NCBI GenBank assembly: GCA_964436975.1
Contig: CAYTET010000001.1
Span: 1-32,000, forward strand
From: an uncultured Erysipelotrichaceae bacterium
GTDB taxonomy: Bacteria > Bacillota_I > Bacilli_A > Erysipelotrichales > Erysipelotrichaceae
Direction of reading: 5' to 3'
Length of the DNA: 32,000 nucleotides
Positions 22,047 through 32,000 of the stretch are shown piece after piece. Position numbers and translations under genes: made by a program. How positions within the stretch are numbered: the stretch's first letter is position 1; each line of letters begins with the position of its first letter. The notes beneath the pieces were generated by a model that did no database searches, was not told the origin of the DNA, and was given only the letters and a program-made list of their open reading frames with translations.

Positions 22047-23342
22047 TTATTTCTGCTGCCAGTAACCGGTCTTATTAGAACCCTGATGAATCAGACAGCC
22101 CTGACTGACAAGCTGCTTTATGGCCCGGTATATCGTACTCTCCGACACCTGAAGCATCTTGGCTAATTCACGGCGGCTTAAGGACGGATTCTCTTTTAAC
22201 TTTTCCAGTATCTTCTCATTCAGCCTTTTTGAACCGGTCTCATCCAATTCATTTGTTCCCCCGTTTGGACCGCCGGCAAAAGGGATTCTCACTTTGATAA
22301 AGTTTTTAGAGAAGCTGAAGACGTTTCTGTCATATACACGCAAAACCCTTCTTATTCCGGTTCCCAAAAACTCCACCAGTCCCAGATCATGAAACACTCG
22401 CATCAGTTGCGGATTCACCGACAGTGAAAAACCTCTGAAGAAATCTTCTTCACTGTAATTATCCGGCAGGCCGCCAAAAGAAGATATCTCAGCATAGCTG
22501 TCGAACACCTCGAATTTCGGCAGACCGCCGTCAACATAGTTATTATGAACAAAGGCATTAATTATCACTTCCCGCATGGCAATACCATCAAAGCGTCTGA
22601 CTTCCTGGCGCTGGCTGCCGGTTATTCTGGTATAAATGCAGTTTTCAGCCTGCATTCTCTGCAGAACCTGATCAACCGAAGTTATGACAGACTGATTGAT
22701 AAATTCGGCCCTTGCGGTAAGATCGAACACATCGTTGCCCCGGTATTTAGCAAATTGAAAGGGCAGTCCGTTTTCGTCGGCCAGAAGATAAGCCAGATAG
22801 TTATACAAACCATCTGCGCTGTATAGGCCGAACTGCTGATATAAATTAGGCCCTATTTCGCAGCCTTTATTGCGATAATAGATTTCCAAGGCTGAAAAAT
22901 GCAGATCCTGACGGGGCGACGTCTTAGTAGAAAGAGTAATCTTGTTCCTCTTCTGATATAGAGCAAAAATCATATCTTCCGGCATTTTTTCAACCGCTGT
23001 ACCAATTCTTATAAATGTCCCTTCCGGAGACATTCCCAAACGGCTCAGATAATAAGGCTTCTGATTTCCGGAAGAGACCATTACCTGAATATACTGCCGA
23101 TCCCCCTTTTTTAGCTTAATTATGTCAAATAAGCCCAGCGCTGACGGTTTGATTTTGTTCTTCAGACGGTCTTTTATTTTCAGTTCGGTTTCATCAACAT
23201 CAGGCACTCCGACAACCGTACCGCTGTCAGAAACGCCAATGTAAATACTGCCGCCGCCTTTTGAATTTAAAAAAGCGATGACTTCTTTTTCAAATTTATC
23301 ATTTAAAACTTCCTTAAATTCATTATGTTCATTTTCTATCAT
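22047..23342 (-). CDS. AlbA_2 (Schlafen-like, 'divergent AAA') / HATPase_c_4-type ATP-binding protein with a C-terminal wHTH (start trimmed to the ATG at 23342)
   Basis: 431 aa. The N-terminus is ENEHNEFKEVLNDKFEKEVIAFLNSKGGGSIYIGVSDSGTVVGV (AlbA_2 signature). The middle has MREVIINAFVHNNY...GTGIRRV. The C-terminus has LSRRELAKMLQVSESTIYRAIKQLVSQG. RBS AGAGGTG. By eye it looks AT-richer than its neighbours. Confidence 0.7.
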   Translation of the reverse strand: MIENEHNEFKEVLNDKFEKEVIAFLNSKGGGSIYIGVSDSGTVVGVPDVDETELKIKDRLKNKIKPSALGLFDIIKLKKGDRQYIQVMVSSGNQKPYYLSRLGMSPEGTFIRIGTAVEKMPEDMIFALYQKRNKITLSTKTSPRQDLHFSALEIYYRNKGCEIGPNLYQQFGLYSADGLYNYLAYLLADENGLPFQFAKYRGNDVFDLTARAEFINQSVITSVDQVLQRMQAENCIYTRITGSQRQEVRRFDGIAMREVIINAFVHNNYVDGGLPKFEVFDSYAEISSFGGLPDNYSEEDFFRGFSLSVNPQLMRVFHDLGLVEFLGTGIRRVLRVYDRNVFSFSKNFIKVRIPFAGGPNGGTNELDETGSKRLNEKILEKLKENPSLSRRELAKMLQVSESTIYRAIKQLVSQGCLIHQGSNKTGYWQQK

Positions 23343-23369
23343 TATCAGCACCTCTGTCTCGGCTATTCC

Positions 23370-23405
23370 ATGAAGCAATAAATGAAGCAGTAAATGAAGC
23401 GATAA
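23370..23405. repeat. Three tandem 12-nt repeats ATGAAGCNNTAA upstream of the AlbA_2-like gene
   Basis: ATGAAGCAATAA / ATGAAGCAGTAA / ATGAAGCGATAA, read directly. They lie 28-63 nt upstream of the ATG at 23342. Confidence 0.9.
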
Positions 23406-23413
23406 CGGCTGCA

Positions 23414-23441
23414 ACAAAAAGAAAACGGCAGCGCTGCCGTT
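23414..23441 (-). terminator. Rho-independent terminator after the nfnAB-like operon
   Basis: The minus strand reads ACGGCA-gcgc-TGCCGT followed by TTTCTTTTTG. Confidence 0.7.
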
Positions 23442-28618: not shown

Positions 28619-29881
28619 ATGCATCAAGTACTTAAAATCGAAGGCGGACATCCTTTATCAGGCCGGATTGAAGTGTCCGGGGCTAAAAATGCGACTGTCG
28701 CCCTGATTCCGGCGGCCATTCTGGCCAGCCAGGTTGTCACCATCACCGGCATTCCTGATATTGACGATGTTGCTTCGCTGATGGAGATTCTGCATTACCT
28801 GGATGTCGATGTTCAGATTGTCGACACCGGCCATATTATCATTGACCCCTCCAGGATGACCAACAAACCGCTGGTCATTGATGCTGTCACCAAACTGAGA
28901 GCTTCCTACTATTTCATGGGCGCCCTGCTGGGCACGTATAAACATGTCATCATCAAAATGCCCGGCGGCTGCAATCTGGGCCCCCGGCCGATTGATCTGC
29001 ACCTGAAGGCTTTCGAGGCCCTGGGCGCCACGGTCAAATACAAAGACAATACTTATGAACTGACAGCTGACCGGCTGGTGGGAACCCGGATCTATCTGGA
29101 CTTCTGCTCGGTGGGAGCAACCATCAACATCATGATGGCGGCCTGTATGGCTATGGGCCGCACCTATATCCAGAATGCGGCCAAAGAGCCGGAGATCATT
29201 GATGTGGCCACCCTGCTGAACAAGATGGGCGCCCGCATCCACGGCATGGGCACCAATGTCATCACCATTGACGGCGTTGACCGGCTGGACGGCTGCTTTC
29301 ATGAAATCATTCCCGACCGGATTGAAGCCGGCACCTTCATCATCATGGCGGCAGCCATCGGTCACAATGTCACCGTCAACAACATCATTCCCAAGCATCT
29401 GGAAGCTTTGCTGTCAAAACTGACTGAAATCGGCATCGGACTGGATGTCGGCCTGGACCATCTGACCGTCAATTCATCATCCCTGCTGACGGCATCCGAT
29501 ATAATGACAATGGTTTATCCCGGCCTGGCCACTGATCTGCAGGCGCCTCTGACGGCTCTGCTGACCCAGGCCCAGGGCCGCTCCACAGTGACCGAGACCA
29601 TCTACCCCCAGCGCTTCAAGCACTGCGAGCAGCTCAACAAGATGGGAGCTGACATCAGCGTCACCGCTCCGACGGCGGTCATCAACGGTCCGACGGCCCT
29701 GCACGGGGCTGATGTGGTTGCCACCGATTTAAGATGCGGCGCCAGTCTGGTTGTTGCCGGGCTGCTGGCCCAAGGCATCACCACGATTGAAGACATTTAT
29801 CATATTGACCGCGGCTATGAAAACCTGGACGGCAAACTGCAGGCTCTGGGTGCACATATCTGGCGGCAGAACGTTGACTAA
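28619..29881 (+). CDS. murA: UDP-N-acetylglucosamine 1-carboxyvinyltransferase (start trimmed to the ATG at 28619)
   Basis: 420 aa with [21 protein letters not shown], the active-site Cys loop [17 protein letters not shown], and the C-terminal [15 protein letters not shown]...[21 protein letters not shown]. Confidence 0.95.
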
Positions 29882-29908
29882 GTTGTTTTAACAATCACTA
29901 TTGACTGA

Positions 29909-29936
29909 GGCCGGAGTTCTATGCTCCGGCTTTTTG
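29909..29936 (+). terminator. Rho-independent terminator after murA
   Basis: GCCGGAG-ttctatg-CTCCGGC followed by TTTTT. Confidence 0.85.
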
Positions 29937-29958: not shown

Positions 29959-29987
29959 TTGATACCGGAGCTGAAAACTCTTATGAT
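29959..29987 (+). promoter_or_regulatory. Candidate sigma-A promoter for the HNH/methyltransferase pair
   Basis: -35 TTGATA (29959-29964), 17-nt spacer, -10 TATGAT (29982-29987), about 70 nt upstream of the ATG at 30057. Confidence 0.45.
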
Positions 29988-30056
29988 ACTATTAAATATA
30001 TTGGCAAAGACCGATCCAAAATAATCATTCTTTTCAGCCCGCAAAGGAGATCAATT

Positions 30057-31190
30057 ATGCCGCTTCCTTATTCAGACACCCTGCCGATAGGCCGGCTGGC
30101 CAGGATATTTGACAGCACCAGCGAATGTTACAAGTTCTTCTGGTTCAAAGCCGTTTTTAATTTCACCATCGAGGGCCAAACGGTCATGCGCTATGAAGAC
30201 CTGGTTGATGAAATGATTGCTGACGCCTGGTATATGGTTACGGAATACCATCTGAATCTCGGCCCGGCCGATACCCTGGAAAAAGTTGTCAGCATGATAA
30301 GCCAGCGTTCGGCGCTGCGCTCAAATCAGAAAAAAACCAGCATCATTGACTGGCTGAAAAACTCCGAAGACAAGGAAATAATCCGCTGCAAAAACACTTT
30401 GATAATTAACGTCCCCTACCGCCTGCAGTCGCCTTTCTTTACGGCAATCCGCTCGTCAACCGGTGACTGGAAACTGCCAAAAGACGGGCTGATAGTCAGG
30501 CTGAACAGTTATACCGACGCGCTTTATTCCTATGGGCCTTATAAAGGCCTAGATACAGTCATCACCGTAAGACCGGAATGGGCTCTATATCTTATAGCCA
30601 ATCAGCAGGTTATCAGTGGCTGGGTTGAATACTGCATGATCCAGTATCTGCAGAAACGAAATCCGGGGATTCCCGGAATCATCGACAAAATATATCCGCC
30701 GTGTGAAAGAGACTTAAAACTGGTTAAGGTTTATTACAAAGAACTGCTGCAGATTAGAGCCATGCATGACATATATTCCAGCATCACTATAGACAGTAAT
30801 ACCGATATTTCGATAGACCATTTCATTCCCTGGTCATTTGTAGCTCATGACGAATTATGGAACCTGTGCCCGACTTTGAAATGCATTAACAGCAGCAAGA
30901 ATAATTCCCTTCCGGACTGGGTTTCTTACTTTCCGAGGCTTCGAGAACAGGAGTATGAAAACTGCCAGTTAATCTGGAGTTATGATTCTGTTCGCCGGGC
31001 CTTTGAAAGCTGTGCCCGTAAAAATCTTAATGATGATCACATTAAGGCGGTTTTATACCGGCCGGATATTGCCCGGGACGATTTTTACCGCCGACTGGAG
31101 GAAATAATCAAACCATCTTATTTATCAGCAAAAAACAGCGGTTTTGCGAGTTGGAAATATGACAAGGAAAGTTTAAAACATGGCGAATAG
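30057..31190 (+). CDS. HNH(HNN)-endonuclease-domain protein with a large uncharacterised N-terminal region
   Basis: 377 aa. The C-terminal third carries DISIDHFIPWSFVAHDELWNLCPTLKCINSSKNNSLP, the His-Me finger pattern DH...WNL...N. Residues ~1-250, including ECYKFFWFKAVFNF, match nothing I can name. RBS AAAGGAGA. Confidence 0.7.
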   Translation: MPLPYSDTLPIGRLARIFDSTSECYKFFWFKAVFNFTIEGQTVMRYEDLVDEMIADAWYMVTEYHLNLGPADTLEKVVSMISQRSALRSNQKKTSIIDWLKNSEDKEIIRCKNTLIINVPYRLQSPFFTAIRSSTGDWKLPKDGLIVRLNSYTDALYSYGPYKGLDTVITVRPEWALYLIANQQVISGWVEYCMIQYLQKRNPGIPGIIDKIYPPCERDLKLVKVYYKELLQIRAMHDIYSSITIDSNTDISIDHFIPWSFVAHDELWNLCPTLKCINSSKNNSLPDWVSYFPRLREQEYENCQLIWSYDSVRRAFESCARKNLNDDHIKAVLYRPDIARDDFYRRLEEIIKPSYLSAKNSGFASWKYDKESLKHGE

Positions 31191-31770
31191 AACTATTGCC
31201 TATTACGATGAAAATGCCGCTTCTTTTGCGGACGGTACAAAACAGGCCGACATGCACCTTACGGCTGATTTATTTCTGCGCCACCTTCCGGCAAACAGCC
31301 TGATTCTTGATTTTGGCTGCGGCACCGGCCGGGACAGTCTGTACTTCATTAAGCATGGCTGCCGGGTTTCGGCAATTGACGGCTCTGTTGAAATGTGCCG
31401 GATGGCGAGCTCTTTTACAGGACTGCCGGTCCGCAAGGAAGCCTTCGCGGATTTTGCGGATAAAGACACCTATAACGGCATCTGGGCCTGTGCTTCGATC
31501 CTGCATATGCCAAAAGACGATCTGCCTGACATGTTTACCAGACTTGCGGATGCTCTTTTAAATAAGGGTGTTCTATATGTCTCATTCAAGTATGGCGACT
31601 TTGAAGGAGACCGGGACGGCCGCTATTTCACGGACCTGAATGAAGCTTTGCTGCGGGGTATAGTTAATAATGTCTTATCGCTGCACGAGCTTACCATGTG
31701 GATCAGTAATGATGTGAGAACGGATCGTACTCAGCAGAAATGGCTTAATGCGCTGTATGTAAAAGGATAG
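31180..31770 (+). CDS. Class I SAM-dependent methyltransferase (small-molecule/RNA-type fold, not an obvious DNA MTase)
   Basis: 196 aa with motif I ILDFGCGTGRDSLYF, post-I SAIDGS and IWACASILHM. It has no (D/N/S)PP(Y/F/W) or PCQ motif. The start overlaps the HNH ORF by 11 nt, with RBS AAGGAAAG inside that ORF. Confidence 0.8.
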   Translation: MANRTIAYYDENAASFADGTKQADMHLTADLFLRHLPANSLILDFGCGTGRDSLYFIKHGCRVSAIDGSVEMCRMASSFTGLPVRKEAFADFADKDTYNGIWACASILHMPKDDLPDMFTRLADALLNKGVLYVSFKYGDFEGDRDGRYFTDLNEALLRGIVNNVLSLHELTMWISNDVRTDRTQQKWLNALYVKG

Positions 31771-31921
31771 AAATAAGTGACAGCGGCCCTTGCACCGAGG
31801 GCCTGAAAACAGTTCAAGTTAGCTTAAACTCGTCCTTGCATCACGGGGAAAGCTATGGTAGCATAATAGAGCACTTACTTTGATTCGATCAGAGATTCAA
31901 GGCAGAAGGAGAAAGAGAAAA

Positions 31922-32000
31922 ATGAAAAAAGAGATCCATCCTACCGTTTACGAGACCAAGGTTGTCTGCACTTCCTGCGGCAATGAGTTTACGACCCATT
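31922..32000 (+). CDS. rpmE: 50S ribosomal protein L31 (5' part; runs off the window)
   Basis: MKKEIHPTVYETKVVCTSCGNEFTTH, with RBS AAGGAGAAAG upstream. The CxxC marks the zinc-ribbon (type A) form. Confidence 0.85.
   Translation, partial: MKKEIHPTVYETKVVCTSCGNEFTTH

Follow-up and report, generated by a model that had tools for sequence, protein, structure and literature searches.

An HNH nuclease gene and a small methyltransferase gene inserted between murA and rpmE form a mobile pair, most likely an uncharacterised restriction-like defence module

Organization of the locus

Between murA and rpmE, an uncultured Erysipelotrichaceae bacterium (assembly GCA_964436975.1, contig CAYTET010000001.1) carries two overlapping genes, one for an HNH-type nuclease (gene 1) and one for a small class I S-adenosylmethionine (SAM) methyltransferase (gene 2). 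The window, that is the whole stretch of DNA analysed, comprises positions 1 to 32,000 of the forward strand of this contig. The two genes are a co-inherited, horizontally acquired unit and most likely represent an uncharacterised restriction-like defence module. An earlier reading of the window, referred to here as the original prediction, had singled them out as a nuclease coupled to a methyltransferase, with the logic of a restriction-modification (R-M), defence or toxin-antidote pair.

Features of the locus are listed in Table 1. The murA gene ends at position 29881, and its terminator forms the upstream border of the inserted interval. Reading frames of the two genes share 11 nt. A scan of 2.3 kb disclosed six promoter sites of the kind found upstream of gene 1, against 3.4 expected, so this promoter, being a consensus match only, is weak evidence taken alone. 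Downstream of gene 2 lies a GC-rich hairpin which has no T-run and is a weak or uncertain terminator. The rpmE gene starts at 31923, and the ribosomal-protein leader in front of it belongs to the flank outside the module and marks the downstream border of the insertion. The leader appears intact, and the insertion therefore landed upstream of it.

The GC content is 0.452 in the HNH gene, falling to 0.417 in its C-terminal part, and 0.489 in the methyltransferase gene, compared with 0.526 ± 0.033 in 18 other genes of the window. At third codon positions (GC3) the pair has 0.53, and the other genes 0.636 ± 0.052 (z about -2). The AT-richness of the 3' half of gene 1, noted by eye in the original prediction, is thus real but moderate once computed. 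The remaining elements of that description, namely a strong terminator closing murA, a promoter and a ribosome-binding site before gene 1, and an 11-nt overlap with the ribosome-binding site of gene 2 inside gene 1, are all borne out by fold stability, consensus matching and coordinates, with the reservation given above for the promoter.

Table 1. Features of the murA-rpmE interval in the window (RBS, ribosome-binding site; ORF, open reading frame; AF2, AlphaFold2)
Feature	Position	Strand	Basis and details
murA terminator, hairpin	29908-29932	+	T-run to 29935; predicted fold -22.1 kcal/mol, z = -3.99, 0/200 shuffles as stable
Sigma-70-like promoter, TTGATA-17-TATGAT	29959-29987	+	10/12 consensus matches
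RBS of the HNH gene, AAAGGAG	30043-30049	+	Read in sequence, 7 nt 5' of ATG at 30057
HNH gene	30057-31190	+	ORF, 377 aa; stop TAG 31188-31190
N-terminal domain, aa 1-235	30057-30761	+	Mostly helical; 'S-E-C-Y-K-F-F-W-F' motif; no family match
HNH (His-Me finger) core, aa 242-286	30780-30914	+	Pfam HNH_4, E = 1.1e-8; SIDH(255)F…WN(269)L…IN(278)SSKNN
C-terminal helical extension, aa 287-377 and stop	30915-31190	+	AF2 helices 288-360
RBS of the methyltransferase gene, AAGGAAAG	31164-31171	+	Read in sequence, within the HNH gene
Methyltransferase gene	31180-31770	+	ORF, 196 aa; ATG at 31180
GC-rich hairpin without T-run	31785-31803	+	Fold of 31771-31830, -17 kcal/mol, z = -1.8; uncertain terminator
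L31-Firmicutes ribosomal-protein leader of rpmE	31878-31911	+	Rfam RF03156, 28.5 bits vs gathering score 33.3, E = 0.0026

Insertion between murA and rpmE

Comparison of the interval in related strains, proposed with the original prediction, identifies the pair as an insertion. The gap between murA and rpmE measures 2042 nt here and only ~ 107 nt in about 50 related loci, in which MurA is 62-65% identical and neither the HNH nor the methyltransferase gene is present. The inserted stretch amounts to 1.9 kb and carries both genes. A metagenome scan for MurA relatives gave matches at 42-67% identity. The pair is present on every contig read that has an identical MurA and enough downstream sequence, and no empty site of the same species was found among these contigs. 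Because all of them carry the pair, the insertion is demonstrable only against relatives at 62-67% MurA identity. The insertion borders showed neither direct nor inverted flanking repeats. From these comparisons and from the distribution described below we conclude that the pair is a horizontally acquired, mobile unit.

A different insertion of 2.5 kb was observed in the same gap of a metagenome relative (L106:5261-7823). It comprises a flavodoxin-like gene of 197 aa and an overlapping pair encoding 134 and 224 aa, the latter nucleotidyltransferase-like by eye. Because this relative has another cassette there, the murA-rpmE gap seems to be a place where small cassettes insert repeatedly.

Association of the two genes

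Adjacency was counted in the 80 closest species loci of the HNH family, and in 35 of them the methyltransferase gene lies directly beside the HNH gene, with spacing ranging from a 41-nt overlap to a 111-nt gap. These 35 include one locus with the methyltransferase upstream (L054) and one in which both are joined in a single 570-aa protein (L048). A further fusion of N-terminal domain, HNH core and methyltransferase has 578 aa (P0179), while in P0139, on a contig of 1.8 kb, the N-terminal domain is fused to the methyltransferase without the HNH core. Pairwise distances of HNH and methyltransferase proteins are correlated (r = 0.78), and none of 2000 Mantel permutations reached this value. Paired HNH genes are scattered over the entire HNH tree, and the pair recurs in several bacterial phyla: it is also found, in both gene orders, in an Anaerolineaceae metagenome-assembled genome and in Solobacterium, Francisella, Acinetobacter, Pseudoalteromonas and Roseomonas. 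Two of the proteobacterial HNH proteins, from Acinetobacter and Pseudoalteromonas, were compared and have the same architecture of N-terminal domain and HNH core (hhalign probability 93% and 86%, respectively). Co-occurrence in other genomes, which the original prediction had put forward as a check, is thereby established, and the HNH and methyltransferase genes are a real co-inherited unit.

Viewed from the methyltransferase side, the association is equally regular. All seven sampled homologues at 45-55% identity overlap a nuclease gene. In four of the seven the partner is an HNH_4 protein of 378-398 aa, encoded before or after the methyltransferase, and in the other three it is a PLDc_2–ResIII–Helicase_C protein of 827-842 aa. 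One of these PLD-helicases was tested (L179), and it shows similarity to type I R subunits and to the 'dnd restriction enzyme' model. The methyltransferase is thus a dedicated nuclease partner, and its nuclease partners are interchangeable.

In metagenome contigs (L178-L181 and L194) and a Polaromonas plasmid, close homologues of the methyltransferase overlap or are fused with a restriction-type PLD (HKD)–superfamily 2 (SF2) helicase protein in place of an HNH protein, constituting a second, parallel two-gene module.

On plasmids, the HNH gene is followed by the methyltransferase gene in Francisella and Roseomonas, and preceded by it in Pseudoalteromonas and in Acinetobacter, where the pair adjoins a type I-F CRISPR system. 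A Marinomonas plasmid carries a WYL gene, a methyltransferase pseudogene and the HNH gene in succession, and in a Polaromonas plasmid (L197:4998-6755) the methyltransferase is fused to a helicase. A more distant methyltransferase on a Ralstonia plasmid (35% identity) stands alone in an ordinary context.

HNH genes without the methyltransferase

Within 6 kb of the HNH gene, the methyltransferase is absent from 44 of the 78 related loci inspected for it (~ 55%), with the HNH gene intact, and at L059 it is reduced to a remnant of 42 aa. The active site of the HNH proteins from such loci is invariant, their conservation equals that of the paired proteins, and not a single column of the alignment distinguishes the two groups. 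The nuclease is thus tolerated without the methyltransferase. This distribution contradicts the obligatory protection implied by the R-M or toxin-antidote logic of the original prediction, in which a nuclease is not maintained without its partner.

In one HNH clade (L008 and about 13 other loci, such as L011, L020, L053 and L066) the position of the methyltransferase is taken by a protein of 102 aa, and 31 loci have neither of the two. The 102-aa protein matches nothing in Pfam, NCBIfam or PDB. A MazG/PRA-PH-type pyrophosphohydrolase was considered, but the likeness is by eye only and the label is not claimed. In the cluster L008:2718-12137 the HNH and 102-aa genes accompany those for a Schlafen-group-3 helicase, a MazG-like protein and a PDDEXK_4 protein (the latter seen in L008). 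The cluster recurs in several loci of this clade, where it also includes a PLD–DEAD–DUF3427 (SauUSI-like) helicase, a NUDIX protein (PADLOC PDC-S07) and an integrase.

The HNH protein

The gene 1 product carries the Asp-His and conserved Asn residues that define the HNH / His-Me finger superfamily. Conservation of the catalytic residues was among the checks named in the original prediction, and D254, H255, N269 and N278 are invariant in 30 homologues. The core aligns with the HNH domain of Cas9. Only generic HNH-domain matches, mostly to Cas9, and no specific family were obtained from NCBIfam and PHROGs, and PADLOC-DB v2.0.0 gave weak matches to the Cas9 HNH domain alone (E ≥ 1e-3). The original placement of the core in the last third of the protein holds for its nature and not for its position, as about 90 helical residues follow it. 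Judged from the sequences, the catalytic motif is intact in each of the two proteins, and both enzymes look active.

No family in Pfam, NCBIfam or PADLOC corresponds to residues 1-235, in agreement with the earlier statement that the first 250 or so residues contain no recognizable motif. Many residues of this segment are invariant in the same 30 homologues, including the Y-K-F-F-W core of its motif. Mean pairwise identity is 0.77 for residues 1-70, 0.765 for the HNH core and 0.56 for the C-terminal extension, which is the least conserved part. The beginning of the protein is thus as conserved as the core and does not behave as the rapidly diversifying recognition domain of classical R-M enzymes. 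The modified-base sensor domains typical of Type IV enzymes (SRA, PUA/EVE/ASCH, DUF3427 and SBD were sought) were not detected either. Modelling and fold search of the 377-aa protein, as had been suggested, gave a mostly helical AF2 model with an overall predicted local distance difference test (pLDDT) score of 80.8, and mostly 80-97 in the N-terminal domain, for which Foldseek returned nothing at E < 0.7 in PDB and BFVD. A BrxA/DUF4007-like DNA-binding module was considered for this domain and ruled out (hhalign probability 0.2%).

The HNH family encompasses 2157 clusters. Relatives are found in 349 GTDB species, the majority of them Lachnospiraceae, and a profile of the N-terminal domain alone matches 1877 cluster representatives. 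The same domain opens two long proteins, P0170 (1343 aa) and P0193 (1297 aa), whose remaining ~ 1000 residues have no match in Pfam, nor, in P0170, in NCBIfam, against which it was additionally scanned.

A phage origin of the HNH gene was considered and rejected. Relatives occur in only three IMG/VR contigs and one unannotated phage record, none of them with the methyltransferase, and because such matches are few the gene is unlike the homing HNH genes typical of phages.

The methyltransferase

Sequence and predicted fold agree in characterizing the gene 2 product as a class I (Rossmann-fold) SAM methyltransferase. It matches Pfam Methyltransf_25, 23, 12 and 11, with E values from 6e-11 (Methyltransf_25) to 1e-7, and has motif I and D67. 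Residues invariant in the family are GCGxGRD (ILDFGCGTGRD in this protein), D67, C104, S106, H109, Y133, K137 and R148, followed by D178, R180, R183, W188 and N190. Its AF2 model (pLDDT 94.9) superimposes on PDB 3e23, a SAM complex, with a Foldseek template modelling (TM) score of 0.87. This structure, of the uncharacterised protein RPA2492 from Rhodopseudomonas palustris, is also the closest solved relative by profile (E = 3e-38, 31% identity), and the two share Y-S-x-K and R motifs. Next in similarity are toxoflavin, mitomycin, phosphoethanolamine, tellurite, halide and protein N-terminal methyltransferases. On profile and model evidence the protein is placed in an RPA2492-like clade of class I enzymes of small-molecule type. 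Its subfamily comprises 1557 clusters.

The absence of DNA-methyltransferase motifs, claimed in the original prediction, extends from the sequence to the family consensus. Neither (D/N/S)PP(Y/F/W) nor PCQ is present in them, and motif IV is thus missing. DNA methyltransferases do not appear among 60 PDB profile matches or the top 50 fold matches, nor DNA-methyltransferase families among the Pfam and NCBIfam matches. A DNA-recognition domain is lacking and can be excluded, because 196 aa leave no room for it. By motif, homology and predicted fold, the protein is not a DNA methyltransferase.

Searches in NCBIfam, PHROGs and PADLOC disclosed no specific family. The sole PADLOC match, mad2 (8e-11), extends over the generic Rossmann region of methyltransferases and was set aside as an identification.

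Genomic neighbourhoods

Distant relatives of the HNH protein, only 27-29% identical, are associated with modules of DNA phosphorothioation (PT). In a Hymenobacter plasmid (L189:8119-14743), one adjoins SspABCD-like genes for a cysteine desulfurase, a DUF4007 protein, a large protein and a phosphoadenosine phosphosulfate (PAPS) reductase. Another is located in an island of the Synechocystis plasmid pSYSM (L186) together with DUF4007, cysteine desulfurase and a 'DNA phosphorothioation-associated putative methyltransferase'. DUF4007 corresponds to SspB (PMC12839542). The pSYSM relative also lies near a pair of AAA and DUF4276 genes. PT synthesis genes were found neither at a distance of up to 8 kb from the HNH–methyltransferase pair nor in the most frequent families of 142 immediate neighbours.

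Many relatives are situated in defence or mobile-element contexts, as the original prediction had proposed to verify. PADLOC matches among the 142 neighbours include Type IV and Type I enzymes, AbiEi, PbeA, DRT and PDC-S07, of which PbeA is an HKD–SF2 helicase (PMC10853773). One island unites genes for a Schlafen-type helicase, MazG-like, PDDEXK_4, HNH, SauUSI-like and NUDIX proteins and an integrase. Other neighbours are GmrSD, a type I S subunit with SLATT, AbiEii, HipA and other toxin-antitoxin genes, prokaryotic Argonaute and type I-F CRISPR. Many further genes among the 142 neighbours have housekeeping functions.

In single loci the pair is followed, by overlap or after a 6-nt gap, by a gene for Tpt1/KptA (PTS_2-RNA) or a Macro-domain protein, and in Allochromatium an RtcB gene is near the pair (L195:4142-4699, L184:5766-6278 and L187:10801-11997 for these neighbours). 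They hint at a possible connection with RNA or ADP-ribose. According to gene calls made on L001, an identical contig, the minus strand of the window encodes a SLFN_AlbA_2 / HATPase_c_4 / HTH protein at 22047-23417, some 7 kb before the pair. Genes of this type are frequent near defence genes.

Discussion

The explanation we favour, although tentatively, is that the pair is a modification-linked, horizontally acquired two-gene cassette of defence type, with the HNH protein as effector and with a methyl mark or ligand, provided by the methyltransferase, that tunes or licenses the nuclease. Gene 1 would supply a DNA nuclease of Cas9-type HNH fold preceded by a conserved helical domain of about 235 aa, which may sense or bind a constant nucleic-acid feature and not a variable sequence. 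Gene 2 would supply its dedicated small methyltransferase, probably made in fixed proportion through the overlapping frames. As a 'modification arm', this enzyme may place a non-canonical methyl mark either on nucleic acid of the host or on a ligand resembling a nucleotide, and reading of the mark by the nuclease would distinguish self from invader. PT modules seem to appear in the equivalent position beside distant nuclease relatives. In the PT-sensing SspE system the nuclease is licensed or tuned by the mark and loss of the modification arm is tolerated. Here too, the mark may license or tune the nuclease and not merely block it, which would explain why loss of the methyltransferase is tolerated. 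A more specific version, distinctly improbable in our estimate, has the methyl group put on a backbone or terminal phosphate (as a methyl phosphotriester or 5'-phosphate cap) or on a ring nitrogen, replacing PT in an Ssp-like defence in which the N-terminal domain is a new reader.

Several observations weigh against a modification-linked cassette. The methyltransferase is missing from more than half of the related loci, and its loss leaves no trace in the alignment of the HNH proteins. It lacks motif IV, a DNA-recognition domain and any DNA methyltransferase among its profile and fold matches, and its distant relatives at ~ 35% identity, in Ralstonia, are orphans in ordinary contexts. Because of these contexts, the methyltransferase chemistry may predate any link with a nuclease. 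The HNH core is poorly modelled (pLDDT about 50-60). Many loci, including the window, have housekeeping flanks.

A nuclease that acts autonomously in the manner of Type IV enzymes, being dependent on a modification or another trigger, and is accompanied by an accessory methyltransferase which does not mark DNA, is the main rival explanation but rather unlikely. The N-terminal domain would keep the HNH core silent until modified or foreign DNA is met. The methyltransferase would then act on a small molecule, a nucleotide, the nuclease itself or the DNA ends cut by it; it could, for example, signal that a phage SAM lyase has depleted SAM, render a nucleotide ligand inactive or cap DNA ends with methyl against religation. 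Such autonomy agrees with the frequency of unchanged HNH proteins without the methyltransferase, with an N-terminal domain conserved like the catalytic core (0.77 for residues 1-70) and unlike a sequence-recognition domain, and with fold relatives of the methyltransferase that are small-molecule or protein methyltransferases. An anionic substrate carrying phosphate would fit the invariant K137, R148, R180 and R183, and the clade with the 102-aa protein resides in islands with MazG-like, NUDIX and SauUSI-like genes. On the other hand, no SRA, PUA/EVE or DUF3427 fold was found in the N-terminal domain, and the consistent tie between methyltransferase and nuclease, together with fusions of the N-terminal domain to the methyltransferase, is left unexplained.

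The other two alternatives are weaker. In a classical R-M or toxin-antitoxin pair, a constitutive HNH nuclease would be lethal unless the methyltransferase protects DNA or neutralises the nuclease, and overlap, variable gene order, fusions and horizontal spread are all typical of such cassettes. This is nevertheless highly improbable and largely refuted by the 44 of 78 loci which keep an intact HNH gene without the methyltransferase, L059 having a remnant only; moreover, there is no DNA-methyltransferase motif or fold, and the putative recognition domain is not variable. Improbable, too, is a role outside genetic conflict, either as a couple for nucleic-acid processing or repair (for example RNA cleavage and methylation) or as unrelated genes on a selfish HNH element. 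Housekeeping flanks here and at many other loci fit such a role, and so do the Tpt1/KptA, Macro or RtcB genes at or near the pair in single loci and the rarity of relatives in viral records (three contigs and one phage record), atypical of a phage homing HNH. Against it, genes for RNA repair adjoin the pair in isolated instances only, both genes travel together to unrelated sites that include plasmids and defence islands, the nuclease partners are enzymes of DNA-restriction type, and neither flanking repeats nor a homing-type target was found.

Among known systems, SspABCD–SspE and the Dnd-associated nucleases resemble the pair in having a modification module beside a nuclease of HNH or HKD–SF2-helicase type. 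Distant members of the HNH family stand beside SspABCD-like genes, and the alternative partner of the methyltransferase is an HKD–SF2 helicase of PbeA / 'dnd restriction' type (PMC10853773). In contrast to these systems, the annotated surroundings of the pair and the Lachnospiraceae loci contain no PT genes, the modification enzyme is a small class I methyltransferase, and the N-terminal domain has no similarity to DUF4007. The HNH protein also lacks the DUF262/DUF1524 domains of SspE and the SBD/SRA domains of ScoMcrA. Type II R-M systems with an HNH endonuclease (KpnI, Hpy99I) likewise combine HNH and SAM methyltransferase in a compact, mobile and often overlapping operon, but the methyltransferase described here, from a small-molecule clade, is devoid of amino-methyltransferase and C5 motifs and of a target-recognition domain, and the nuclease is commonly alone and has a conserved N-terminal domain instead of a variable one. 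Type IV enzymes (TagI, SRA-HNH; SauUSI, PLD-helicase-DUF3427) share with gene 1 a single chain in which a non-catalytic N-terminal domain precedes HNH, as well as viability without a cognate methyltransferase, and a SauUSI-like gene is co-located in one clade. They differ in that the N-terminal domain of gene 1 matches no sensor fold and in that Type IV enzymes are not characterised by a methyltransferase dedicated to them.

The pair matches none of the PADLOC v2 system models, and the profile searches recommended for both proteins led to generic HNH_4 and Methyltransf families and to no defence model. The original prediction that it fits no canonical R-M type is therefore upheld by the lack of a DNA-methyltransferase motif or fold and of a system model. 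In the literature searched, the scope of which did not include subscription journals, we found no described system of HNH and small methyltransferase.

Annotation of the family members at present goes no further than 'HNH endonuclease domain-containing protein' or 'class I SAM-dependent methyltransferase'. Association of one methyltransferase with two unrelated nuclease types, and of one of these nuclease types with PT modules, points to a modular logic of modification arm plus nuclease arm that goes beyond classical R-M. If the defence role we infer is true, Lachnospiraceae of gut and rumen would commonly carry a compact defence system of two genes, which is also present on proteobacterial and cyanobacterial plasmids. 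It would contribute a domain whose fold is unknown, as well as a methyltransferase that does not belong to the families acting on DNA. If the methyltransferase does put a non-canonical mark on nucleic acid and the N-terminal domain reads it, the pair would represent a new class of epigenetic self/non-self system, based on a methyltransferase of small-molecule type and distributed in several phyla.

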